Positions 4,147 to 61,824 of a stretch of 64,000 nucleotides of DNA are shown piece by piece. Positions within the stretch are counted from its first letter, which is position 1, and every line of letters starts with the position of its first letter. The stretch is taken from contig OZ024742.1 of the NCBI GenBank assembly GCA_964016885.1, forward strand, positions 134,106,001 through 134,170,000, given 5' to 3'. The notes beneath the pieces are model-generated. The model was not told where the DNA came from. It did no database searches and was given only the letters and a program-made list of their open reading frames with translations. Made by a program: the position numbers and the translations under genes. The DNA comes from Eledone cirrhosa (Eukaryota).

Positions 4147-4513
4147 ATATATATATATTATGGAAGTATATATATATTATTATTATTATTATTATTATAA
4201 TTACTTTGAAAGTAATCGGTGTCATGACTGATACAAAATGAAATATGTGTCTTGTCTCTAAAAATCGTTCAAGATAGAATTCATTCAGATAATAAAATAG
4301 AGCCTTAATCATTATAAGAAAGTGATTGAAATATATTCATACACAGATAAGTGTGCACTAAGACATATCAAAACATAGAACTAGAGACAATCTACACTGA
4401 AAGTAAGACTACATAATTCGTTGAGTATCTTATTAAAATTAAATTTTAAAAAATTAAAACAAAATACCTAATAACGATCAAATATATTTCCCTAATATGT
4501 ATACTCAACAAAA

Positions 4514-4573
4514 TCAGAATACATTTCACCAAATAACAGCGAAATTAGATATTTTGACACGGGTCATCAGTGA
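4514..4573 (-). ncRNA. Degenerate hammerhead ribozyme
   Basis: Minus: tca CTGATGA cccgtg...ttggt GAAA tgtat TC tga. Stems II and III are weak. Its 3' part recurs inverted at 4788-4835. Confidence 0.5.
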
Positions 4574-5003
4574 GGGAATTTCAAAATCATGTAATCTCAC
4601 TCAATGCAGGGTTGAAAGTTGCTAAACGCACATGCTACCAACACATGCATTTTAGCACTGGCAACGACATGAAGGGTTCTCGTTCGCCAAAAAATAGCAG
4701 TCCAACATATCGACGATAAACCGCTCACCAAGTAAGGATCAGACATATTATTATTATTACTTTCAAAGTAAAGGGTGTCATGACCGTGAAATGTATTCTG
4801 ATTTTGTGGAGAATACATATTAGGGAAATATACGTATATATATATATAATATATATATATATGTGTGTGTGTGTGTAGGAGGTGAGTTTTATTGTAGTAC
4901 AATAAAGCAATGCAGATATCGGATAAGTAACACTCTACAATTTGTAGGACTGGAGTATAAATAATAATATATAAGATCAAAAGATGGTTAAAAGAGTTCC
5001 ATG

Positions 5004-5074
5004 TATTTTATTATGCGCATTTCAAAAACAAATATCATCATGCAATAACATTTGCGTTTTCGTCAGATAAAATA
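5004..5074 (-). ncRNA. Type I hammerhead ribozyme, intact
   Basis: Minus: tattttat CTGACGA aaacg caaatgttatt gcat gatgatatttg ttttt GAAA tgcgca TA ataaaata. 8 bp stem I, palindromic stem III. Confidence 0.88.
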
Positions 5075-5144
5075 GGGAGACATGATATGAAGGTTAACAC
5101 TGCACTATTCACAAATGTGTTTTAACCTTCATATCATGTCTCCC

Positions 5145-5214
5145 TATTTTATCTGACGAAAACGCAAATGTTATTGCATGATGATATTTTTATTTGAATG
5201 CGCATAATAAAATA
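5145..5214 (+). ncRNA. Type I hammerhead ribozyme, mirror copy with 1 nt deletion (GAAA to GAA)
   Basis: Plus: tattttat CTGACGA ... GAA tgcgca TA ataaaata. Confidence 0.75.
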
Positions 5215-5257
5215 CATGGAACTCTTTTAACCATCTTTTGATCTTATATATTATTAT

Positions 5258-5316
<59 letters not shown>

Positions 5317-5351
5317 GGTGTTAAAGTTTGCTTGAAGCATTGTGAAATGTG

Positions 5352-5760
5352 TAAAAATACGTATTTAAGAAAGCCACAATGCAAAGGGAAATCTCGAGGT
5401 AGGAAGTGAAATATAGATAGGAAAAACAGGTGAAAGTGAAAATTGAGAGAGACAAAGATGAAAACAAGGTGTGATGTCGTTAAGACAGGAATGCCGTTAT
5501 AACGGCATTCCTGTCTTAACGACATCACACCTTTCTCCGCTTGGCCTGTTTCCCCCCTTTTGGAACTTTTCCCCCGTTGATGGGCGTGAGCCCGAAATAT
5601 TGGGATTAAATCTCTACTACGGTAACCCTTCTACCTTTGTTTTGTTTTCATCTTTGTCTCTCTCAATTTTCACTTTCACCTGTTTTTCCTATCTATATTT
5701 CACTTCCTACCTCGAGATTTCCCTTTGCATTGTTGTGGCTTTCTTAAATACGTATTTTTA
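5352..5760. repeat. Foldback element with a perfect 68 bp central palindrome (5466-5533)
   Basis: aaggtgtgatgtcgttaagacaggaatgccgtta|taacggcattcctgtcttaacgacatcacacctt. Outer arms 5352-5465 and ~5642-5760 are reverse complements. About 105 bp extra on the right arm only. Confidence 0.92.
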
Positions 5761-6478
5761 TATATATATATATATATATATGTGCGTGTGAGAGTGAGAG
5801 CGTATGGGAGTGAATATCAAATCAGATTATTACAATCATAGCAGTTTGGTAGGGAAGATAGTAAAGGAATTTTGCATTATATTTGCGTAAATACATGAGT
5901 GTTCTAACTTGGGATTCGTAATCAGGGTATATGTTCTCATATGCTTCAGTTGTTGATATCGTTATTCAGTTGAGGGTATGCTATTCGGAATGTGACTAAT
6001 GAGTCTGTTGCTGGGGGCAATGAGATTCGGCTATATTTGTAAATGTCATGTTGACATTATATACATTAATTAATCTATGATAAGCTGGTATGGTCTAAAT
6101 GTTAGTGTAAATGCATATTTATAAGTATACGAACAAGCACACACGTTAATACGTATCTGCACGGATACATATTTATTTAAATGAATGACTAAAAACATAT
6201 TTAACGATTATATTTGTATCTGACAAAAACATACAGAAACACACCCGCACTCACATAGGTATGCAAACAGACTCACAGAATTGCTCGAAAACGTATAGCA
6301 CATTGTAAACCCAGACACATCCGTACACAGTCACACAGACGCGCCATTCACACGTGTATATTTATATCTACACACACATACATATACATATGTGTGTATG
6401 TGTGTTTGTGTATATATACACACACACATACACCCGCCAGACACACACACTCGCGCGCACACATACACACATATATAT

Positions 6479-33325: not shown

Positions 33326-33383
33326 ATACTATGATCATTTCAATTACCGGGTTCCGTATGAATCCGGTGATATCATCAGGTAT
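33326..33383 (-). ncRNA. Type I hammerhead ribozyme in a solo repeat (33289-33487) of the 145-2478 family
   Basis: Minus: atac CTGATGA tatc accggattc atacg gaacccggt aatt GAAA tgatca TA gtat. Perfect TGATCA palindrome. Confidence 0.85.
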
Positions 33384-41896: not shown

Positions 41897-42082
41897 GTTG
41901 TTATATAGTAAAGTGTATTATTAGTTGTTTAAAATGTTCCAGTCAATTTATTTTAGCAATATTAAGTTCTCCACGCTTTTGTATGTCTCCAATTCCATTC
42001 AAGGGAACAGCTAGATGATGTAAAACGGAGTATAAGTATCAAAATGAAAATCCGAAGGCAAGGTAAAATTCCAATCATTTAA

Positions 42083-42155
42083 TCACGACACATATTTCAA
42101 TAGGAGATAGATCGATTGTGAAGCCATATCGATAATCACAGATCTCATCAGGTGA
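42083..42155 (-). ncRNA. Type I hammerhead ribozyme in the PLE 3' repeat
   Basis: Minus: tcac CTGATGA gatc tgtga...tcaca atc gatc tatctcctatt GAAA tatgtg TC gtga. The core is deleted in the right arm. Confidence 0.72.
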
Positions 42156-43152
42156 AAATGAATTGTCTTCAAATTATTGATATGAGGGAGAAAAATAATG
42201 ATGTTCTCTCACAAAATTCATTCCTTGATATACAGACACACCAGTCAGAGAAATGGCGACTGCTATTAACTTCAGTTGAGGTCATAAAAGTTGTTAGATT
42301 TCTATCGCCGCAAAAGACGCTGGACATCAATCAAATCTGTAGGGATATAGTTAATGTGAGTGGGTACACACACACTCCACACCCCATACACCGGCTCGAA
42401 GTCAAAGAAAAAAAAAATATATATACACACATTAACACAGTATCAAATCTGTAGAATTGTAAGAGGTCACAGTTAGTGTGGGTGGGTACACACACACGCT
42501 CACACACACCGAAGCGATGTCAGAGAAAAAAAACAACAAATATAGGAAAACAAATATAAGAATGTACCAACACAACACTCATCGAAAGTTAGTTCACAAA
42601 ACAAAAGATACTACAATGGTCAAATCCCTATTGGACGATGTAAATTGGAAATATTGGGTTAATCAACGCCCCATACACACACACACACGCGCGCGCACAC
42701 ACAAGCAAGTAAGTTCAGTTCAGTGTTCTGCTATACGTGTATAGATCGAATTGTAACATCCATATCTTCAAGTGTATGTTATGGTATATACACATCCGAA
42801 TCGTTCAAAAAAGGATATGTCTGGGTATATACACATCCATGTGAAGAGCAAGCAATCAGCTCATATCGAACTCAGTATGTACCGCTGTCCCATTAGAGAA
42901 TCCGAGTCACCATATCCGTGCGTTCAAGCCACCGCAATGTAGGCCAACAAGGTGCTCCGTGTAGGGTTGGGTATTGGGTAAATGCGTCAGTAAGTGCGAT
43001 TTCCCGTCATATGGGCCAATGAACGTTTAAGATAGTCGTTTGAGTGGTGGAGGTGTTTTATCCAACAGAGAAGGTGAAGTAAAAAAACACAGGATAGTAA
43101 AATCCAGAGGATGTGTGTAGGCCCACTAATGGTGTGTAAGTATTATTGTTCA

Positions 43153-43341
43153 GGTGGATTGGCAGTATCGGTAGAGGGTCTGACGCTATGCTTTGCAGCA
43201 AAGAGTTACGCCCCTTTATGGTTTGAGTTCAAATCCCGCCGAGGTTAACTTTGCCTTTCATCCTTACGGGGTCGATAAAATAAAGTACCAGTAATGCACT
43301 GGATAATTGCTGGCCTTGTGCCAAAAGTAGAAACAATTATT
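43153..43341 (+). mobile_element. tRNA-derived SINE inserted into the PLE left arm, 11 bp TSD
   Basis: attattgttca at 43142-43152 and 43336-43346. Empty site in the right arm at ~45939-45950. Confidence 0.92.
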
Positions 43342-43646
43342 GTTCAATCTGTAACAGTGAGTCCTCCATGGTTAGGGTATCTTAAAGTAAAGGTAGGTGT
43401 GCGTAATCGGTCATGCATGAGTGTTCAATCAATTAGTAACAAGGTATTCTAAGTGTGTAATCAATCTAACTATTTACTACCTAGGTATTCTAAAAACAGT
43501 GCACTCAGCTGTGAGAACTCCGTGAAAACAGGCCGAGTATCGTTTGTAAGTGCGCAAACAATCTTAGCCGTCTAACTACCTGAGTGTGTGACTGTTTATT
43601 GAGAGAACTCTATGGCTAAAGTAGAGAGGGAGCCATTAGTGGTAGG

Positions 43647-45390
43647 TTACCTTCCAAAATTCCTGCGGAAGGTTTTCAAGATTCTATGTTGGCAGTTGCT
43701 GAAAAAATCAGATCTCCTATTAATTAATAGGGGGCCGCCTCTAATAATATTAAAGGTTTCAGCTATACATAAATTGCAGACGTCATTGCTGCCGTTATAA
43801 GGTGGGGGTTAAGCAAACTATGGACCAGGAAAAGGAGTGCTCTATATTCTGATATTTAAGCTTCCAGACTAATTCAGAAAGTGCCGTGATGTTTTTTTTA
43901 TCTAATCTATTAAAGGTATGGCGGTGATTATACCATCTATCCTTAAATTCTATGGCAGTTGCCCGAACATACCTAAAGGTTCTATCAGGAGTGGAGACCT
44001 TACAGTCGTAGACTATGTTATTGGTAAAGCATTTCCCAGCCATGGGGCAGGTGGCGGTGCTTATGTAGTTACATATTTTGCTATCGACCTGGGTAGTTCC
44101 AGATGGACCACGGTTCCTTAGGGGTCGGGTCTCAGTTCCTGTCTGCTCTATAGGTAAATTCCCTGGGGTTGGGGAGACCCGAATCGCCTCACGTGTATGA
44201 GTCAGTTCCTCCATAGAATTCCATCTTGGGCTGTCCTATATCTACTATAATTCATCTTAACTATATTCTGAGCTATGTTAATAGTTGTGGAGTAGGACAG
44301 CTTGATGGTATTCCTATTGAGTAAGTTATAATATCTGTGCAATCTAGGGAAGCATTTGTCTAATGCCCTAAAGGAAAGCTTAGCTATACTAGTGGTCAGG
44401 CCAGTGGAGTAAGGGGGGTTATACCACAGGACTTTTCTGGTACGAGGCCTCTTGTTCTTACTAACTATATTAGAGTTACTTGTCTCCCTAATAGTTACTG
44501 GTCTATTGCCACTGGAAAATGCCTGTGGGTCGATGGTGTCCTGGGGTGTCACGATTGTGTTCGGAATCGTCCCAAGTCTCCATGGCGGTGTACCCCCCGT
44601 GCAGCTATTGGGATTACCCTCGATAGCTGAGGTTATATCCACTAAGCGTCTGCTACACCTGTCCCTATTCCCCTTACTCGACCCTCGTTTCAAACTGCGT
44701 TCAACGGTAGTTTTATCGCTTCTACAATTAAGGTTACCATTAGAGTTTTCGCTGGTGTTACGTTGCTCAGACCCCGGGTTAGTACATGGGTGGTTGTTTC
44801 TATTGTTACCAACAGCATTGGAACTAGGCGGCAATACAACATGAAGTCTATATAAATCCTCCCTCGTATCACGCCTGCTGTTAACTAGAGTGTCACTATT
44901 TAGGCCTAAGCTATTGCAGGCAATGTTGCTTCTACTATTTAATGGAAGTTTGAATCAGATTCTCTCGCTATGCCCCGCGCGTTCCAGGGCGCTATTATAG
45001 TAATTCGAGATCTTATTAAATTTATCTTCATTAGAAGATTGTCCTGAAATTCTACTAGAGACGCTCTTGGTAATACCGTTAGTGACTATTCCAGGGTTGT
45101 TCGATTTTGCGTTGACATAGTTTAAATTCTCGTTGGGTTTGTGGTAGGGTTGGAGGGTCCTGAATTGAGGTTAAGTGTAACATCTAGAAAATTAACTATA
45201 TTTAAGTTCTCTTCAAATACTATACTTGGGTCTATGTTCTTGAAGAATTTACTTAGTTTTTTCCTCGCCCTCTCTACCATACTATTATTATGGAACAACA
45301 CAGTAAACAAAACGTCGTCACGGTAAGCGCCGCCTCCCAAGTGGGGCATTTCCACTCCGAGACAGTCAAGGAGGTAAAGGCCCACCTGAT
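43647..45390 (-). pseudogene. PLE RT (C-terminal half) + GIY-YIG endonuclease, frameshifted
   Basis: YRDD, NFLDVTLNL, WYNPPYS..LNRNTIKLSYS, CPMAGKC..NIVYDC..FKDRWYNH, CNLC..E. Confidence 0.92.
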
Positions 45391-47035
45391 TTTTTCAGCA
45401 ACGGCCAACATAGAACCCCGAAAACCTTCCGCAGGATTTTTGGAAGGTAACCTACCATTAACTTCTCCCTCTCTACTATAGCCATAGAGTTCTCTCAATA
45501 AACAGACAGTCACATACTCAGGTAGTTAGACAGGCTAAGATTGTTTGCTCACTTCAAACGATACTCAGCCTGTTTCCACGGAGTTCTCACAGCTGAGTGC
45601 ACTTTTTTAGAATAACTAGCTAGTAAATAGTTAGATTGATTACTCACTTAGAATATCTAGTTAGTAATTGATTGCACATTCAGGCATGACCGATTACGCA
45701 CACCTACCTTTACTTTAAGATACCCTAACTATTGAGTTCTCTCAGTTGGGATATAGCTAATCGTAATACACACTTAGTCAGAACCGATTACGCTCTCTAT
45801 ACATAACTCTACACACAGTACCCGTTTCCTTTAGACATTGAGCACCCACAATTACGACCGTCACGTTCCTACCGACTGAACTCTATACCAGGTTTTGGTC
45901 CGTGATCATCTAACCATGGAGGACTCACTGTTACGGATTGAACAATAATACTTACACACCATTAGTGGGCCTACACACATCCTCTGGATTTTACTATCCT
46001 GTGTTTTTTTACTTCACCATCTGTGTTCGATAAAACACCTCCACCACTCAAACAACTATCTTAAAAGTTCATTGGCACAGATGACGGGAAATCGCACTTA
46101 CTGACGCATTTACCCAATACCCAACCCTACACGGAGCACCTTGCTGGCCTACATTGCGGTTGCTTGCACGTACGGATTTGGTGACTCGGATTCTCAATGG
46201 GACAGCGGTACATACTGAGTTCGATATGAGCTGATTGCTTTCTCTTCACATGGATGTGTATATACCCAGACATACCCTTTTTTGGACGTATCGGATATGT
46301 ATATACCATAACATACACTTGAAGATATGGATGTTACAATTCAATCTATACACGTATAGCAGAACACTGAACTGAACTTACTTGCTTGTGTGTGTGTGTG
46401 TATGGGGCGTTGGTTAACCCAAATTTTCCAATTTACATCGTCAAATTGAGATTTGACCAGTGTAGCAGCTGTTGATTTGTGAACTAACTTTCGGTGAATG
46501 CTGTGTTGGTACATTATTATATTTGTTTTCTTATATTTGTTTTTTTCTTCTCTGACATCGCTTCGGTGTGTGTGAGAGTGTGTGTGTACCCACCCACACT
46601 AATTGTGACCTTTATAATTCTACAGGTTTGATACTGTGTTGATGTGTGTATATATATGTATATATTGTTTTCTTTGACATTGAACCGGTGTGTGTGGTGT
46701 GGAGTGTGTGTGTACCCACTCACATTCACTATATCCCTACAGATTTGATTGATATCCAGCGTCTTTTGCAGCGATAGAAATCTGACAACTTTTTATGACC
46801 TCAACTGAAGTTAATAGCAGTCGCCGTGTTTCTGACTAGTGTGTCGTCATATGAGGGAATGAATTTTGTGAGAGAACATCGTTATTTTTCTCCCTCATAT
46901 CAAGAAATCGATCAACAAATCGATCTATCACTTATTGAAATCGATCTATCACTTATTGAAACATGTGTCGTGATTAAATGATTGGAATTTTACCTTGCCT
47001 TCGGATTTTCATTTTGATATATATACACATATATA

Positions 47036-48804: not shown

Positions 48805-48849
48805 GCTGACAGTGTTTCGTCCATGCATAATTGCAGGACTCATCAGAGC
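48805..48849 (-). ncRNA. Canonical type I hammerhead ribozyme
   Basis: Minus: gct CTGATGA gtcc tgca atta tgca t ggac GAAA cactg TC agc. GUC cleavage triplet, AATAAA just downstream. Confidence 0.9.
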
Positions 48850-49652: not shown

Positions 49653-52600
49653 TGGTAGCTACCAACTCGTTTTCGAGTACGGCCACTACTTTATATCTAT
49701 GTGGGAGAACTCCTACCGATGCGCTGAACGAGTGTGGTATTTTAGTCCAGCCAGCGACTTGAAACCTCTGGTACAAACACTACACTTGTGACAATTATTG
49801 ACACCTAGTGCTGGGCCCATGGTACCATGTGACCCAAGGTGTCGTGTGAGATCACTACTCGACCTGCATACCCTTCCACAAACATTACTTGTCGTCGTCT
49901 GTTGAAAACTTATAGCACCACAGGTGCCCGCTTCCCAGTTCTTGTGCACTCTCACGTGACACTTTAGACCTGTCATGCTCAGAGAAACCCTATTACAGGT
50001 CTCACATGTCAGGTCAGGCCGTCTGTCAGTGCTGTCGGGAAGGCCAACATGGATTCCTTTCCGGACATCTCTTTTTGGTGTCGCGTGCCTTCTTGTTTCC
50101 TCAAATAGACTCTTGCCACTAGCCACTGCTTTCCTCCAATGCGATCGGTCACTAGTGCATGCTTCCCAGTTCTCACAAAGGATGTTACTTTTCTTGAGCA
50201 CCCCCTTGATGCAGTCCTTAAAACGCATCTTGAGTTTGCTCGCGTTCCTTTTTCAGATTTGGAGATCGCCATAAAGCAGCTACTTCAGCATTCGCTTGTC
50301 ATTCCTCCTTACAAGATGTCCTGTCCAGCGCAGCTGATATTTCGAAATCAAGGACTCGACACTATCACAGGCACTTCTGTCCAGAACCTCGACGTCACTG
50401 ACAAACATTTGCCAAGTTATGCCGAGGATCCGACGTAATCTGTACTGGTGGAACCTCCGAAATCGCTTCATCTGTCTACGGTAGACCACCCATGTCTCAC
50501 ACGCATAAAAAAGTGCCGCGAGCACACACGCATGATACACTTTGAGCTTTGTCTTTACCGAAATTCCGTGTTGAGAGCAGAGACACTTGTTCAGTTTTCC
50601 AAAAGTATCACTGGCTTTCTGTATCCTGTTTGATATTTTCCATCAAGATCGCAGGACATACTCAGAGCGCTTCCAAGATATACAAAACTGCCAACGACCC
50701 TTAGCCTTTCACCATAAACCAAGATGTTGGGCTCACAACATGGCTTCCCAGGGGCTGCGTGGTACATGGTTACCGTCTTTTTCAGGCTTATGGTAAGTCC
50801 CAATGCAGTACACGCATTAGAAAATGCATCCATGATATGCTGCATATCAATCTCCGTGTGCGCTACCAGGTCACAGTCATCTGCATAAAGCAGATCCCTG
50901 ATTAGTGACAAGTGAACATTTGACTTAGCATTGAATGTCCTGATATTAAACAGCTTTCCGATAGCGAATATATATACCATGATTGCTGTTCCCGAAGGCC
51001 TGTTCGAAGACAATGGAGAAGTACAAAGCAAAGAGCATTGGAGCTGGAATGACATCCTGTTTGACTCCATTCTCGACCGTCACCAGCTCAGAGAGCTTTC
51101 CACCAACATTTACCCATGCCTTCATGTCATCATGAAACAAACGCAAAATGGAAACAAACTTCTCAGGGCACCCCAGCTTCTTCAATATATCCCATAAAGC
51201 CTTTCTGTTGACCATGTCAAACGTCTTTGTCAGATCAACAAACACCTGGTAGAGATCCACATTCTGCTCAACACACTTTTACTGCAGTTGCCTGGCTGTA
51301 AAGATCATGTCCACAGTGCCACGCCCAGCCCGAAAGCTCGATTGCGACTCTGGTAGAGCTTCATCAGCAATCTGGAACAATAAACGGTCCAACAGAATTC
51401 TACAGAGAACTTTGCCGACAACAGACAACAGAGATATCCCACGATAGTTTCCGCAGTTATCCCTGTCTCCCTTTCCCTTGTACAAAACAACCATCACAGC
51501 ATCCTTCCAGTCATTGGGATGGGAACATGATTGTTGTTCCAGGCATCCAGAACCAAAGAACGAAGTCGGTGCAAGAGATTCTCTCCACCGTGCTTCAAGA
51601 TCTCAATATACAGCCCGTCCAATCCAGGCAACTTCCCTACCATTCAGTTTCCAGACATCACTTTTAACCTCCTTGATAGTTGGAGGCTCAGCAAGGATTT
51701 CCTTTACTGGCTTATTTCCTTTACTCTTCGTCAACCTCTGAATCCCTATTGAGAATCTCGTCAAAGTGATCTCGCCATCTCAACAGGATATCATTGGGAT
51801 TTCTAAGGAGCTGATTGCCATCCTTTGTCATAAGAGGCGCAACTGGTGATGTAGGTCGTCCATACATTGCCTTAACGTCCTTCACATCCGACGCAAGTTT
51901 TATTTCATAGGCTTTGTCATTCCACCTCTTATTCTTCATTTCACGCAATTTTCGTTGCACATCAGCTTTTACGAGCTTCAGCTTATCAGCGATTGCCTTC
52001 TGCCGATCGTTGCTTAAATCACTACCAAGCAGTGCGGAGTGGAGCATATGTTTCTCCTCCAAAAGCTTGTCTATAAGTTTGTCATGTTGGTCAAACCGAT
52101 CCTGATGCTTCTTATCCGCGAATCCAACAATATCAGCACATTCCCCATAAACTGTCTCCTTAAAGGAAGTCCAGTCATTTCCGCACTCTTACGCATCCAT
52201 CTTTCTAACCAGTTTTTCTCTGACTTCAGGATCCTTCAGACGGGCAACGTTAAGCCGTTTGGGAAGTGATACCCCTCGCCGTTTCTCCCTTTTACGAACT
52301 ACACATCTTGCTCTTGCTCTCACAAGACGATGGTCGGTCTAACACTCTTCCCCAGGCATCACACGAACACTGCACAGATCCTATACATCCCGCCGCCTCA
52401 CAAGGAGATAATCAATCAGGTGCAGTGTTCTATTCAGGATGCATCCATGTTGTCTTGTATCTGTCCTTCTGTTGGAACATAGTGGACCCAATGAACAAGT
52501 TCAGCTCAGTGCACATTTGCAATAACAAGAGTATATTGCCATTGCACTTTCCGACCCCATGCTTACCCAGAGCTCTCTAGGTCTCACAATCACGGCCCAC

Positions 52601-54776: not shown

Positions 54777-54815
<39 letters not shown>

Positions 54816-54855
54816 GATATTAAATAAATGGAAACTATATTTATAAAACCATATC

Positions 54856-54921
54856 TATTTCATTATATATATTTCAGGGATATCATATTAACAATATGTT
54901 ATGCCTTCCTCAGACAAAATA
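54856..54921 (-). ncRNA. Type I hammerhead ribozyme (3' pLTR)
   Basis: Minus: tattttgt CTGAGGA agg cataa catatt gtt aatatg atatc cct GAAA tatata TA atgaaata. Confidence 0.8.
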
Positions 54922-55771
54922 CAATATAGACAGTTTTATAGATAAATAGATTTGACATACCGTTCAACATCGACTTGTATTTGAAAAAGTTGATTTGGCA
55001 GTGAAAAATTGTAAACAGAAAGAAAGAAAGAAAGAAAGAAGGAAAGAAAGAAAGAAAACGAAGAAAAAGAAGAAAAAGAAGAAATGCATGCAACAAAATA
55101 GAGAGATGGAAAGATAGATAAAGAGAAGAACTTCATGTAAAGAAACAGAGAGAGATATATATAGAGAGAGGAAATAGATAGAGATAGATATATATAGAGA
55201 AAAGTAGGTAGTTGAACATCCGTTGAATGAACGTATCAATGATACATTTATTTATTTATTTATTTATTTAGCTCTAGTATTAATGTAAGGGAGATATATG
55301 TGGTTAGGAAAGAAACCAGCCGTTATATAGAGAGAAAAATGAAAAGTAACCAGACATAGGCGAGGCAGAATTTAAAAACCCTATGTTTTAATGTAGAAAT
55401 ATTAGTTCGTATAAAAACCAGGCACTATAATGTCAATATCAGTATTCCTGAATGAGACACGTATCCATAATGTGTGAAAAGTAATGATCTTATGTCTAGT
55501 TTTAAAAATTCATATGTTTATATGATAACTACAAACATCGATGTGAATTTACGTGATCAACTCTGCAAACCCCTATTTCACACGGAGAACATTCTCATTG
55601 TGCTATAAAAATTTAAGTATACATATATGTGTATATATACACATATATATAGAGTCTATATTAATTTTAACAATACTATTCTTGTCTTTACTCTACATGA
55701 TTATCTATCAAGCAGAAATAGAGAACAGATTTCAATATATTAATAAAAAATATCAGAAACAAAAACAAAAA

Positions 55772-55867
<96 letters not shown>

Positions 55868-56348
55868 CAAATAGATAAAATAGAAAACTAAAAAATATTA
55901 CATATTAAAAATAAAAATATTAAAAATATTAAAAAATATTAAAATAATAAAAATAAAAACATAATAGAAACAAAATATGCCACGCAAATCGACCACAAAG
56001 ATCAACCCTTCAAAATTAATTGACAATATATTGCCAAGTTCATTATAAGCATCAGAGTCGAAAACAGATAAAGCTAAAAATTAAAAATGATTTACCAAAT
56101 CGCGTCTAGCAGAAATCATTTCAAAAAGTTTAGGATGCCCATTTGGTCTACATATGTTCTTATATTTAATATAGAAGTTTATCTAGTGTAACGTTTATTC
56201 GATATATTTGGAGCATCAACTTTTAGGGTAGTTTAATTTTTCATGAAGAATGTTTAAATAAAAATAAAAATAAAAAGAAGAATAAAAAGAAGAAATCGAA
56301 AGATTTATCGGCTAGTTTCCCAAATAATTATAAATCAAACTTAATATA

Positions 56349-58561
56349 CTACATTTTAAATTTAAATTTATATTTAAAAGTTGAGTTCAATCTATGTTTG
56401 CAGCAACTGAATAAATTTGTCCGTAGATTAAGGGAATTTTAGATTTTAGTATAAAGAATATCTCCTCCGCGCAGAGGTCATATATCTCAGAGGATGAATT
56501 AAAAGGAATCCCTCTTGAGACTATATTCCAAGCCGTCAAATATCTAACGTTATCTTGCCTAAGTTGCCAGAGTACGCCTGATAATGCTGTTGAAGATTTT
56601 TTGCTTGGATCTGTGAAAGAATTCTTGTGGTTATTATAGCGAAGTTTAAATTCCGTCAATGTGGAACCGACGTAGTTAAAAGAATTAGAGTCCGTTTTAA
56701 CATTACAGTTGTATATTATATTTTTAACTAAGCAGTTGTTATTTAACGGACATTTAGATCTATCTCTACAGTTACATTTGTTAACTTGTATATTATTTAT
56801 GTTATTATCGCTAGGTTTTAAGTTCCTATTATTTATTCTATAAATATTTTGTGCTAAATTTTTGGTGGATGAGTAGGTTAATTTTATAGTATGTCTATTG
56901 AAAATTGAGTGATACCTATGTGTTCTAGGGAAGCGATTATCAAGAGCTTTAAAAAATAGTTTAGCGATGTGGGTTTTAATGTTTAGTGAGAAAGGGGGGG
57001 GGGCAAACCATATTATGTTCCTAGTTCTATTTCTTTTTTGGCTTTTGGAATTATTGTAATGCTCTCTATTATAGTTGTTAAGGTTGTGGCCGTAATTAAA
57101 ATAGTTGTTATTTTGTTTAGTTTGTCTATCATTATCCATGTACATAATCTTATCACTATATCCTGCTCTAGCTAACGCTTCATTGTAGTACTGGGCTTTT
57201 TCGTCGAAAATCTTTCTATTAGACGAGATTCTAGAGATACGTTTTTGAACAGAGTTTACTATAGAGTTTTTGACAGAATGGGGTGGTTAGAGTTAAAGCT
57301 GACATAGTTTAAGTTTTCATTCAACTTGTGAAAAGGATAGTGAAGACATGTTGAGATTTAATGTTATATCTAGGAAATTGACTATTCTATGTTTGTTCTC
57401 AATTTCTATTTTTAGATTAAAGTAATTAAAAAATTGTGTAATTTGTTTTCTTTTTCTATTTAGTTCAGAGTTATTATTATCAATAAGTAAAAGCATGTCA
57501 TCTCTATATAAACCTCCGGTAGTACCAGGTATTTTCCTATGTAGCGAATTGATTAAAAATAAGCCCACAAGGTCAGTTACCTGAGCTGAGTCGGATGATC
57601 CCATAGTAATGTCAAAATTGCTATCCCTATCTGCTCTGGTCCATAGTTGGTCATTAAATGCTATCAATGTTTTCCTAGCCGAGAATATAATGTGCATTTC
57701 ATTGCTAGTTAGGTCTGTATGTTTGAATGCGTAATTTAGTGCCTTATTTAGTAGATTAGGGGTAATAGAAGAATAATAGTTAGCAATATCAAGTTGAATA
57801 AACTTATTATTATTGTTATATTTAATTTGCTTAAACCACTCAACAACCTCTCCAGTTCCCTTCCACAAGCTCAGGTTAGGTAAACAATCCAAGTTTTTAA
57901 TTTGCTGTATCACCCTGTCAAGAATGTTTTTGCTTAATTTGCCCAGGTCCGATTTTGATGGTGCGATCAATCTAACTGGCAAGTCATTTTCAAAATTCCT
58001 TTTGTGATCTTTCATATTGATCTTCGGTTTCCTGGGCACGAAAGGTTGTGTTCTGTTCTCAATTTCCAACTCGTGCATTATACAAGATGCTTCGACATTC
58101 ATTTTCTCAAGCTCAGCCTTATCTGCTACCTTGTACTTTTTCCTCAGTTCCTTCAGTATGAGGCCATTATACATGTCTTTCTGCACTCCATAGAGGTTGT
58201 TGGTCTTGTCAGATTTCACCAAGATCCTCTCAGTTTTCTCTAAGCGCTCAATATTATCCTTAATGCCTTTCAGATATTCCTGGCCTTTGAAGTTTCTCTT
58301 GAATTTGACCCCTTGTATGATAGAAATTATATCGTTTTCAAAGTCAGATAAAAGTTTGTTAGGGGGTGGATTTCTTTTAGATTTGAAAACTTTGTTTAAG
58401 TCCGAGACATTTTCGTTTATATTAGATTTATCAAAGTGGAATGCTCGCCACATGATTCTCCTTATAAAAGAGTCAGATTTATCTATTAATTGTTTTATAA
58501 AGTCTTTGTTTCTAGGTAGAGGTATGTCTTTTAAAGAGGAAGTAATGTTAAAGAATTCCAT
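56349..58561 (-). pseudogene. PLE RT + C-terminal GIY-YIG ORF (~735 codons, Hydra-clade-like), three small indels
   Basis: KSDKTNN, KDHKRNF..RLIAPSKS, LDIANYY, MGSSDSA, YRDD, FLDITL, CNCR..CPL..CL..IIY..YVG..RYNNH, (C)DLC. Indels near 57350, 57280 and 56436. Confidence 0.95.
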
Positions 58562-58739
58562 TTTTTCAGTTATAATATAAAGCGCTCAACAGTATTGGAG
58601 CAAGATACATGGAAAGTTATATTTAAATTGTTGGGTTACAACTAGTAAATATTTATAACTGATATAAAAGCACTCAACAAGTATTTGGAGTATATTTACG
58701 ATATTATATAAATGGAAACTATATTTATAAAACCATATC

Positions 58740-58805
58740 TATTTCATTATATATATTTCAGGGATATCATATTAACAATATGTTATGCCTTCCTCAGACA
58801 AAATA
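58740..58805 (-). ncRNA. Type I hammerhead ribozyme (5' pLTR)
   Basis: Identical to 54856-54921, about 180 nt upstream of the ATG. Confidence 0.8.
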
Positions 58806-59649
58806 CAATATAGACAGTTTTATAGATAAATAGATTTGACATACCGTTCAACATCGACTTGTATTTGAAAAAGTTGATTTGGCAGTGAAAAATTGTAAAC
58901 AGAAAGAAAGAAAGAAAGAAAGAAGGAAAGAAAGAAAGAAAACGAAGAAAAAGAAGAAAAAGAAGAAATGCATGCAACAAAATAGAGAGATGGAAAGATA
59001 GATAAAGAGAAGAACTTCATGTAAAGAAACAGAGAGAGATATATATAGAGAGAGGAAATAGATAGAGATAGATATATATAGAGAAAAGTAGGTAGTTGAA
59101 CATCCGTTGAATGAACGTATCAATGATACATTTATTTATTTATTTATTTAGCTCTAGTATTAATGTAAGGGAGATATATGTGGTTAGGAAAGAAACCAGC
59201 CGTTATATAGAGAGAAAAATGAAAAGTAACCAGACATAGGCGAGGCAGAATTTAAAAACCCTATGTTTTAATGTAGAAATATTAGTTCGTATAAAAACCA
59301 GGCACTATAATGTAAATATCAGTATTCCTGAATGAGACACGTATCCATAATGTGTGAAAAGTAATGATCTTATGTCTAGTTTTAAAAATTCATATGTTTA
59401 TATGATAACTACAAACATCGATGTGAATTTACGTGATCAACTCTGCAAACCCCTATTTCACACGGAGAACATTCTCATTGTGCTATAAAAATTTAAGTAT
59501 ACATATATGTGTATATATACACATATATATAGAGTCTATATTAATTTTAACAATACTATTCTTGTCTTTACTCTACATGATTATCTATCAAGCAGAAATA
59601 GAGACAGATTTCAATATATTAATAAAAAATATCAGAAACAAAAACAAAA

Positions 59650-59684
<35 letters not shown>

Positions 59685-60579
59685 ACAAATAAATGTCCGT
59701 TAAATAACAACTGCTTAGTTAAAAATATAATATACAACTGTAATGTTAAAACGGACTCTAATTCTTTTAACTACGTCAGTTCCACATCGACGGAATTTAA
59801 ACTTCGCTATAATAACCACAAGAATTCTTTCACAGATCCAAGCAAAAAATCTTCAACAGCACTATCAGGCGTACTCTGGCAACTTAGGCAAGATAACGTT
59901 AGATATTTGACGGCTTGGAATATAGTCTCAAGAGGGATTCCTTTTAATTCATCCTCTGAGACATGTGACCTCTGCGCGGAGGAGATATTCTTTATACTAA
60001 AATCTAAAAATTCCCTTAATCTACGGACAAATTTATTCAGTTGCTGCAAACATAGATTGAACTCAACTTTTAAATATAAATTTAAATTTAAAATGTAGTA
60101 TATTTAGTTTGATTTATAATTATTTGGGAAACTAGCCGATAAATCTTTCGATTTCTTCTTTTTATTCTTCTTTTTATTTTTATTTTTATTTAAACATTCT
60201 TCATGAAAAATTAAACTACCCTAAAAGTTGATGCTCCAAATATATCGAATAAACGTTACACTAGATAAACTTCTATATTAAATATAAGAACATATGTAGA
60301 CCAAATGGGCATCCTAAACTTTTTGAAATGATTTCTGCTAGACGCGATTTGGTAAATCATTTTTAATTTTTAGCTTTATCTGTTTTCGACTCTGATGCTT
60401 ATAATGAACTTGGCAATATATTGTCAATTAATTTTGAAGGGTTGATCTTTGTGGTCGATTTGCGTGGCATATTATGTTTCTATTATGTTTTTATTTTTAT
60501 TATTTTAATATTTTTTAATATTTTTAATATTTTTATTTTTAATATGTAATATTTTTTAGTTTTCTATTTTATTTATTTG

Positions 60580-60615
<36 letters not shown>

Positions 60616-61468
60616 TTTTGTTTTTGTTTCTGATATTTTTTATTAATATATTGAAATCTGTTCTCTATTTCTGCTTGATAGATAATCATGTAGAGTAAAG
60701 ACAAGAATAGTATTGTTAAAATTAATATAGACTCTATATATATGTGTATATATACACATATATGTATACTTAAATTTTTATAGCACAATGAGAATGTTCT
60801 CCGTGTGAAATAGGGGTTTGCAGAGTTGATCACGTAAATTCACATTGATGTTTGTAGTTATCATATAAACATATGAATTTTTAAAACTAGACATAAGATC
60901 ATTACTTTTCACACATTATGGATACGTGTCTCATTCAGGAATACTGATATTTACATTATAGTGCCTGGTTTTTATACGAACTAATATTTCTACATTAAAA
61001 CATAGGGTTTTTAAATTCTGCCTCGCCTATGTCTGGTTACTTTTCATTTTTCTCTCTATATAACGGCTGGTTTCTTTCCTAACCACATATATCTCCCTTA
61101 CATTAATACTAGAGCTAAATAAATAAATAAATAAATAAATGTATCATTGATACGTTCATTCAACGGATGTTCAACTACCTACTTTTCTCTATATATATCT
61201 ATCTCTATCTATTTCCTCTCTCTATATATATCTCTCTCTGTTTCTTTACATGAAGTTCTTCTCTTTATCTATCTTTCCATCTCTCTATTTTGTTGCATGC
61301 ATTTCTTCTTTTTCTTCTTTTTCTTCGTTTTCTTTCTTTCTTTCCTTCTTTCTTTCTTTCTTTCTTTCTTTCTGTTTACAATTTTTCACTGCCAAATCAA
61401 CTTTTTCAAATACAAGTCGATGTTGAACGGTATGTCAAATCTATTTATCTATAAAACTGTCTATATTG

Positions 61469-61534
61469 TATTTTGTCTGAGGAAGGCATAACATATTGTT
61501 AATATGATATCCCTGAAATATATATAATGAAATA
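61469..61534 (+). ncRNA. Type I hammerhead ribozyme (inverted copy)
   Basis: tattttgt CTGAGGA ... GAAA tatata TA atgaaata on the plus strand. Confidence 0.8.
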
Positions 61535-61661
61535 GATATGGTTTTATAAATATAGTTTCCATTTATTTAATATCGTAAATATACTCCAAATACTTGTTGA
61601 GTGCTTTTATATCATTTATAAATATTTACTAGTTGTAACCCAACAATTTAAATATAACTTT

Positions 61662-61710
<49 letters not shown>

Positions 61711-61758: not shown

Positions 61759-61824
61759 TATTTTATTATATATATTTCAAGGGCCACCAAGGCAAATCAT
61801 GATGCGCTTTCATCAGATAAAACA
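61759..61824 (-). ncRNA. Type I hammerhead ribozyme of a sister PLE family (element end from ~61718)
   Basis: Minus: tgttttat CTGATGA aag cgcatca...tggtggc cctt GAAA tatata TA ataaaata. Flanks homologous to 54817-54875, stem II replaced. Confidence 0.8.

Follow-up and report, generated by a model that had tools for sequence, protein, structure and literature searches.

The window analysed here is a 64,000-nt stretch of the Eledone cirrhosa genome (contig OZ024742.1), and at 4875..5258 it contains an insertion made of two head-to-head, 5'-truncated copies of the terminal repeat (pLTR) of a Penelope-like element (PLE) that we assign to the Hydra clade. The two copies form a near-perfect inverted repeat with arms at 4960-5100 and 5119-5258, which are 97% alike and differ at 4 of 139 aligned positions. 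The hairpin strand is computed to fold at -207 kcal/mol (z = -38.7), with none of 200 shuffles equally stable, and the 3' ends of both arms face outward into TA-rich repeats. An earlier reading made from the sequence alone had described a near-perfect hairpin of about 300 bp in this orientation, and the inverted repeat and its computed fold bear this description out. The start at 4961 given there has to be revised and the element is asymmetric, because an 85-bp tail at 4875-4959 also belongs to the element and lies on one side only. The one-sided tail is found in 17 of the 17 best-matching hairpins (16 by script, L016 by eye), whose centres differ from one another. Since the tail stands on a single side and the centres vary among copies, the insertion is taken as 4875-5258 and is asymmetric.

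On the minus strand, the tail of about 85 bp (4875..4959) occupies the interval between the two end points of the family, and the tail-bearing arm (4960..5097) begins some 40 nt downstream of +1, the 5' end common to the family. The tail-less arm (5094..5258, plus strand) starts at +11 and finishes at the short end point; it is consequently the longer arm at the centre, and this is the source of the apparent loop at 5098-5118. The arms are joined at a shared, self-complementary TTAA (5094..5097), and a genome search found this centre once in the 3.0 Gb assembly. An (AT)n/(GT)n target repeat lies on the tail side (4836..4874) and a (TA)n target repeat on the short side (5259..5313), the latter in common with a neighbouring PLE hairpin. 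Both flanks are thus microsatellite, within which a target duplication is unreadable, and the same difficulty with target-site duplications has been reported for PLEs in the accessible part of PMC8557442.

An assembly fold-back artefact was considered and rejected, as the arms stop at two different fixed points with TA repeats behind each, and public contigs from runs of three organisms contain both of these points (the short end in organism A only). The tail end with (TA)n behind it was recovered from the contigs of each of the four public runs, and the short end from both runs of organism A; runs X1 and X3 represent one sample, which may be the one used for the assembly.

Hammerhead ribozyme motifs

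An intact minimal type I hammerhead is predicted on the minus strand at 5004..5074 from a motif scan with stem checks. Read from 5074 to 5004, it comprises an 8-bp stem I, the core at 5066-5060, a long stem II, GAAA at 5023-5020, a palindromic 1-bp stem III and a UA site, with the predicted cut between 5012 and 5011. It was the only match within this element in a window-wide type I scan with stem checks. The plus-strand counterpart at 5145..5214 is damaged and predicted to be inactive, with one A of GAAA gone (5196-5198) and two substitutions in stem II. The proposal of a hammerhead on each strand therefore stands for the minus arm (5074->5004), which passes the scan, and falls for the plus arm (5145-5214) of the window copy, which does not form a minimal type I hammerhead; the features of that type (CUGANGA and GAAA cores, stems I and II, a short palindromic stem III and a UH site) occur together in the minus arm only. 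Across the family, 84 of 98 arms retain an intact hammerhead core.

An Rfam scan of the whole window returned nothing at the gathering score, so the ribozyme call is based on the motif and stem scan together with the published description of minimal PLE hammerheads. Single arms allowed to fold freely were no better than shuffles (z -0.5 to +1.1), and folding energy thus lends no support to the ribozyme; the support comes from the motif and stem scan. Minimal PLE hammerheads of the same form have been reported to cleave poorly alone (PMC4209133), and a dimer or protein was described as needed for good cleavage in the available text of PMC4209133 and PMC11167929.

The predicted hammerhead cut site serves as the 5' end in 1 of 100 copies, and on this count ribozyme cleavage was rejected as the origin of the 5' ends. 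The ribozyme would rather be a passenger, as insertions do not start at its cut site. Rare copies with a 5' end at the predicted cut do exist (L053 and G000:C1:9898923), which possibly were copied from self-cleaved RNA.

Parent element and clade assignment

In 20 loci drawn from the shorter genome matches, the arm corresponds to the 3' end of a longer element. Among another 20 loci, several contain ORFs of about 800 codons that are free of interruptions and flanked by the terminal repeat on either side; the ORFs carry a YRDD reverse transcriptase (RT) core and a YFGS variant of GIY-YIG, and are followed by the same arm as that of the hairpin. A partial tandem, in which the terminal repeat leads into the ORF leader, was found in L050-L054, L056 and L064, while L019 has the same layout as the hairpin at 4.6 kb, with an RT C-terminus and a GIY-YIG ORF on either side. 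A protein search of the genome gave 91,559 first-look candidates, and all 90 scored matches (90/90) were 92-100% identical.

The parent protein has DKT instead of DKG, a CxCX5C linker, CxxC and CxH around the endonuclease (EN), and a C-terminal EN without CCHH, and these features (DKT, CxCX5C, CxxC, CxH, no CCHH) are given as hallmarks of the Hydra clade in section 11 of PMC8557442. CxxC is present in L050, L051 and L057 and changed in L052. Four database relatives were found, one of them from Argonauta hians (38%); the N-terminal RWK site is RWI in the studied family and RWK in three of the four relatives. Pfam and PDB searches of the parent ORF gave nothing significant, and the domains are accordingly assigned from motifs and from likeness to published Hydra proteins. 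Judged by these motifs and by comparison by eye, the studied family can be added to the Hydra clade of PLEs as a new member. As far as the accessible text of PMC8557442 describes the clade, the family shares with it the C-terminal GIY-YIG without CCHH, DKT, CxCX5C, CxxC, CxH, insertion into (TA)n and a hammerhead. It differs in that its unit exceeds the usual 3 kb, with an ORF of about 2.4 kb and a 3' UTR of 1.1-1.2 kb, and in its asparagine-rich linker. From the material available on Hydra-1_Obim of Octopus bimaculoides, the parent protein is only moderately alike by eye and the hammerhead of that element differs, so that the two are regarded as separate families.

The sequence-only reading had set the hairpin apart from a MITE of a DNA transposon, and this distinction was confirmed, since the arms represent the terminal repeat at the 3' end of an element with RT and GIY-YIG, and the ribozyme core is conserved in most arms. 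A MITE was rejected in its own right, because symmetric terminal inverted repeats, a fixed length and a DNA transposase would be expected of it, whereas the tail here is one-sided, centres and lengths vary and the parent is a retroelement.

Population of copies in the genome

The hairpin query gave 87 matches from 40 scored candidates in the genome searched (3.0 Gb). The exact 13-base hammerhead word occurs 22,942 times (control, 244), which corresponds to about 22,900 ends, and at least 3,670 pairs of it stand head to head at a spacing of 40-140 nt (control, 0). When the first 100 sites on C1 are considered, neighbouring pairs of ends less than 8 kb apart number 36, and 30 of these are head to head, in sizes running continuously from 82 bp to 6.7 kb; the ORF-bearing copies are included in this range. 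Insertions of the studied family fall in (TA)n.

In a sample of 50 unselected hairpins (the first 50 on C1), 46 have one short and one tail end, while the other four comprise one two-tailed hairpin, two that are cut and one of another family. Of the 47 pairs that could be called, 46 thus combine a short with a tail end (p = 3e-13 against an expectation of 50%), a pattern that applies to spacers of 40-140 nt on a single chromosome. L113 (the hairpin of another family), L074, L088 and L106 are included in the count of 50 and were excluded from the 46 used for junctions, in which about 6 of the 46 arms with indels in the alignment walk were placed by eye. The two end points of the family lie about 90 nt apart, one per arm. 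The arms of one locus are much more alike than arms of different loci, with a median divergence of 0.8% within a locus vs 7.7% between loci.

Some further hairpins were recorded in this survey. In L086, L089 and L116 the two arms carry different variants of the family, which may reflect two RNAs copied in one insertion. L113 (G000:C1:70617109-70617236) is a head-to-head hammerhead hairpin of yet another family.

A common 5' end and an extra G

Most short copies begin at the common 5' base, +1, located 70 nt before the hammerhead core. In the first 100 of 14,878 sites of the +1 word, counted by eye, about 39 break exactly there, about 60 run on into the upstream element and about 2 break within the next 20 nt. 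Similarly, at least one arm ends at 0 to +4 in 38 of the 46 hairpins, and no arm extends beyond -2. Across the 14,878 sites, the base before +1 is G in 2,403, T in 2,176 and A in 843, while the element itself has C; the G:A odds are 5.8 times those predicted from the composition of the partner strand. T is almost as frequent as G at this position, and in many instances with T the copy is joined directly to (TA)n. Contig depth, a weak measure when taken from contigs, rises about 3.5-fold at +1 in X1 and X3.

Part of the G cases might have another source. T precedes G in 77 of 100 listed G cases, as expected if the template were switched to a similar word at +47 (47 nt downstream); about 12 of the 100 match three more bases of that word and 23 cannot derive from it (by eye). 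About 13 of the 100 listed cases are short tandem duplications. The neighbouring PLE family has a 5' cluster too, but across 20 loci an extra G was not clearly present. That +1 follows a spliced or trans-spliced leader was also considered, and was rejected since the preceding sequence varies among truncated copies.

Judged from DNA junctions, +1 may be the capped start of an RNA made from a promoter in the terminal repeat. The sequence around this position agrees with an initiator consensus. In full-length L1 insertions, an extra G has been reported to mark the cap (PMC11702581), and the promoter of Penelope has been located inside the pLTR in Drosophila (PMC2377424), both as described in the accessible parts of these papers. 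A literature search of mainly open-access papers found no report of a start-site hotspot or a cap G in PLE insertions.

One exact centre recurs in 905 copies, and at least five sequence variants are present among 11 sampled. This recurrent centre is simply two +1 ends annealed by their self-complementary first four bases. The window copy reaches +1 on neither arm.

Origin of the head-to-head hairpins

We consider it likely that both cut ends in the TA repeat primed reverse transcription of a short RNA leader and that the resulting copies were joined head to head. A capped RNA would be made from the promoter in the terminal repeat, starting at +1, and each DNA end would prime at one of two internal AU-rich sites, at about +167 and about +260, positions which come from junction mapping. 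Synthesis of each cDNA would then run off at the capped end, with the addition of one extra base read as G, while repair would join the two cDNA ends via microhomology or short templated inserts. For the window copy, both ends would have been trimmed, to +11 and about +40, before being joined at TTAA. The broader proposition that every family insertion is two-ended with fixed RNA priming sites, that the mini-hairpins are capped-leader run-offs and that short leader RNAs rather than full-length mRNA are the main substrate of the enzyme is one that we favour with some reserve.

The sequence-only reading had offered a snap-back product of truncated PLE reverse transcription, in which one cDNA or antisense template folds and copies itself until the TA repeat. 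Its origin in PLE reverse transcription stands, and the near identity of arms within a locus (median difference 0.8%, against 7.7% between loci) is what such copying would give. Junction microhomology of at least 2 bases in 20 of 46 hairpins and short inserts in 19 of 46, some of which are alignment artefacts, agree with it as well, and self-priming has been proposed for rotifer Penelope elements in the available text of PMC3846280. However, in a simple snap-back the tail arm could not be shorter than its partner, while the script called the tail-less arm longer in 12-13 of the 46 hairpins (one of the 13 cases is equal by eye), the tail arm longer in 7 and the two equal in 26; the tail-less arm is also the longer one in the window copy. 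Moreover, L055, L069, L024 and L034 have the tail alone as the inverted piece, with no overlap, which could not be copied from the partner cDNA. Simple snap-back is thus a poor fit to the arm-length asymmetry and the tail-only inverted pieces and seems unlikely, whereas priming from both cut ends fits them.

A different template may also be envisaged, namely short non-autonomous RNAs that consist of a single arm and tail and come from hairpins or 3' repeats keeping +1, so that the hairpins would be self-renewing with a new centre at each insertion. Hairpins make up about one third of all ends (7,340/22,942), contig depth at the ORF start is about 200-fold lower than at the terminal repeat, and a promoter inside the pLTR is known in Drosophila from the accessible literature; the commonest end variant is also found in 22 of 46 short-hairpin loci vs 8 of 34 arms at ORF loci, the latter being query-biased. 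Nevertheless, the same set of variants is present in short hairpins and in ORF-bearing loci, and many tail ends keep two bases of the ORF-leading sequence, which makes this source improbable as the main template. The window copy has lost +1 on both arms and is thereby excluded as a source of this kind.

A self-propagating palindromic family, MITE-like or retrozyme-like and moving as a ready-made hairpin, had been the other proposal of the sequence-only reading, which had suggested asking whether copies share their centre. Centres vary, as those of the 17 best hairpins do. The single exact centre present 905 times could speak for such a family, but it represents annealed +1 ends on at least 5 variants among 11 copies. 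With the window centre occurring once in 3.0 Gb, the ends asymmetric and one layout running without a break from 82 bp to 6.7 kb, the proposal is unsupported and very improbable. A non-LTR retrozyme was likewise rejected, given the head-to-head arrangement without a monomer repeat. Hardly any credence is left for +1 as a mere DNA hotspot, at which the cDNA would be cut within ATAT by repair or by an endonuclease that seeks TA, or the RT would stall. The site is TA-like and palindromic, and a minor junction cluster lies at the similar word at +47 (3/46); such a hotspot, however, leaves the G excess unaccounted for, and the break is sharp and on one side only (about 39 copies at the site vs about 2 in the next 20 nt upstream).

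The hairpin is therefore a minimal insertion of a high-copy Hydra-clade PLE in a TA microsatellite, and both a MITE and a self-copying palindrome are rejected. With its arms starting at +11 and about +40, the window copy is without the putative start and likely inert; most likely it was dead on arrival and has no function of its own. The sequence-only reading had also proposed that read-through RNA of the hairpin forms a long dsRNA, as a potential ADAR or siRNA substrate; this would hold on thermodynamic grounds, on which such an RNA would bury the ribozyme. siRNA from inverted Penelope repeats has been reported before (PMC3681739, available in part).

Other elements in the window

A second hairpin, at 5314-5765, sits on the same TA repeat as the studied one and is the stub of a different PLE whose GIY-YIG is accompanied by CCHH and which does not belong to Hydra. 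One of its ends is short and the other has a tail of about 40 nt, and both end types were found by exact match in 10 of 19 other loci. In 8 of 20 loci the arms of this family fall together at a single 5' point, and a hammerhead-like word with an altered core lies at about 5578-5600. On the other side of the studied insertion, 47-bp inverted arms 256 nt apart with TA-rich ends form a MITE-like element at 4483-4832, an internal 39-bp word of which recurs at 4190-4228.

A long head-to-head insertion at 54807-61669 belongs to a sister Hydra family, with an RT ORF at 57317-58585 (minus strand) that is 54% identical to the studied parent, an EN part at 56387-57286 (minus strand) and three hammerheads. 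Its two ends are of the short and the tail type, an internal repeat runs into the ORF, and its tail begins like that of the studied family. The type I hammerhead of a further family adjoins it at 61759-61824 (minus strand). In addition, a large inverted repeat at 42030-47026, with arms about 89% alike and Hydra-like endonuclease fragments at 43795-44954 (minus strand), is probably an older head-to-head PLE insertion.

Hammerhead-like cores at 165-206, 2203-2244, 33338-33379 and 48815-48846, all on the minus strand, failed the strict stem scan; the first three sit in copies of one repeat. Broken RT frames of a non-LTR retrotransposon (type assigned by eye) and zinc-finger fragments are present at 49700-52200 on the minus strand.

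Comparison with known systems

An inverted, 5'-truncated copy with a tail at one end is the standard anatomy of PLEs that encode the endonuclease (EN+), according to the accessible text of PMC8557442, PMC3846280 and PMC2377424, and the hairpin layout described here is in this respect already published. The likeness to EN+ PLE insertions extends to head-to-head repeats of variable size, a tail at one end, palindromes at the junction, a hammerhead in the pLTR and TA-repeat targets. In contrast to the 30-40 nt given in these sources, the tail of the studied family measures about 85-90 nt, and its hairpins are very many, at least 3,670. Both copies in the window are reduced to the terminal repeat, so that no ORF is left, unlike in the typical EN+ insertions that these sources describe.

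The anole PLE PAc (Poseidon, Anolis) has been studied in vitro, where both strands are cut and extended, two internal start sites bound the tail and hammerhead cleavage is dispensable (PMC11167929). The start sites of PAc do not resemble the cut DNA, whereas the end points of the studied family share TA-like bases with the target. Neither the joining of copies head to head nor a cap at the 5' end is dealt with in the accessible text of PMC11167929.

Twin priming of L1, as far as it is described in the available part of PMC11702581, is alike in that the other DNA end primes second, microhomology is found at internal junctions and a G is derived from the cap. The L1 cDNAs barely overlap and the internal site is variable, while in the studied family the cDNAs would overlap almost fully, the two sites would be fixed and dual priming would be the rule. 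Animal non-LTR retrozymes, for which bioRxiv 10.64898/2026.07.22.740005 and PMC7229834 were accessible in part, are also short and non-coding, carry type I hammerheads and are kin of PLE terminal repeats; they are, however, described as head-to-tail monomers or multimers, whereas the studied hairpin is head to head and has a direct autonomous parent.

Implications

As a single copy, the hairpin in the window is ordinary transposon debris, while the copies as a population bear on how PLEs form inverted repeats and tails. At least 3,670 short perfect hairpins in the genome are possible substrates for editing or small-RNA pathways. The model of priming from both cut ends predicts a start at +1, priming near +167 and +260 with one site per strand, and dispensable ribozyme cleavage. 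If it is true, the genome records the start site, the cap and both priming sites of the element at base resolution. The origin of PLE inverted repeats and tails was named as unresolved in the accessible text of PMC8557442, and two-ended insertion, if true, would account for these structures in PLEs in general.
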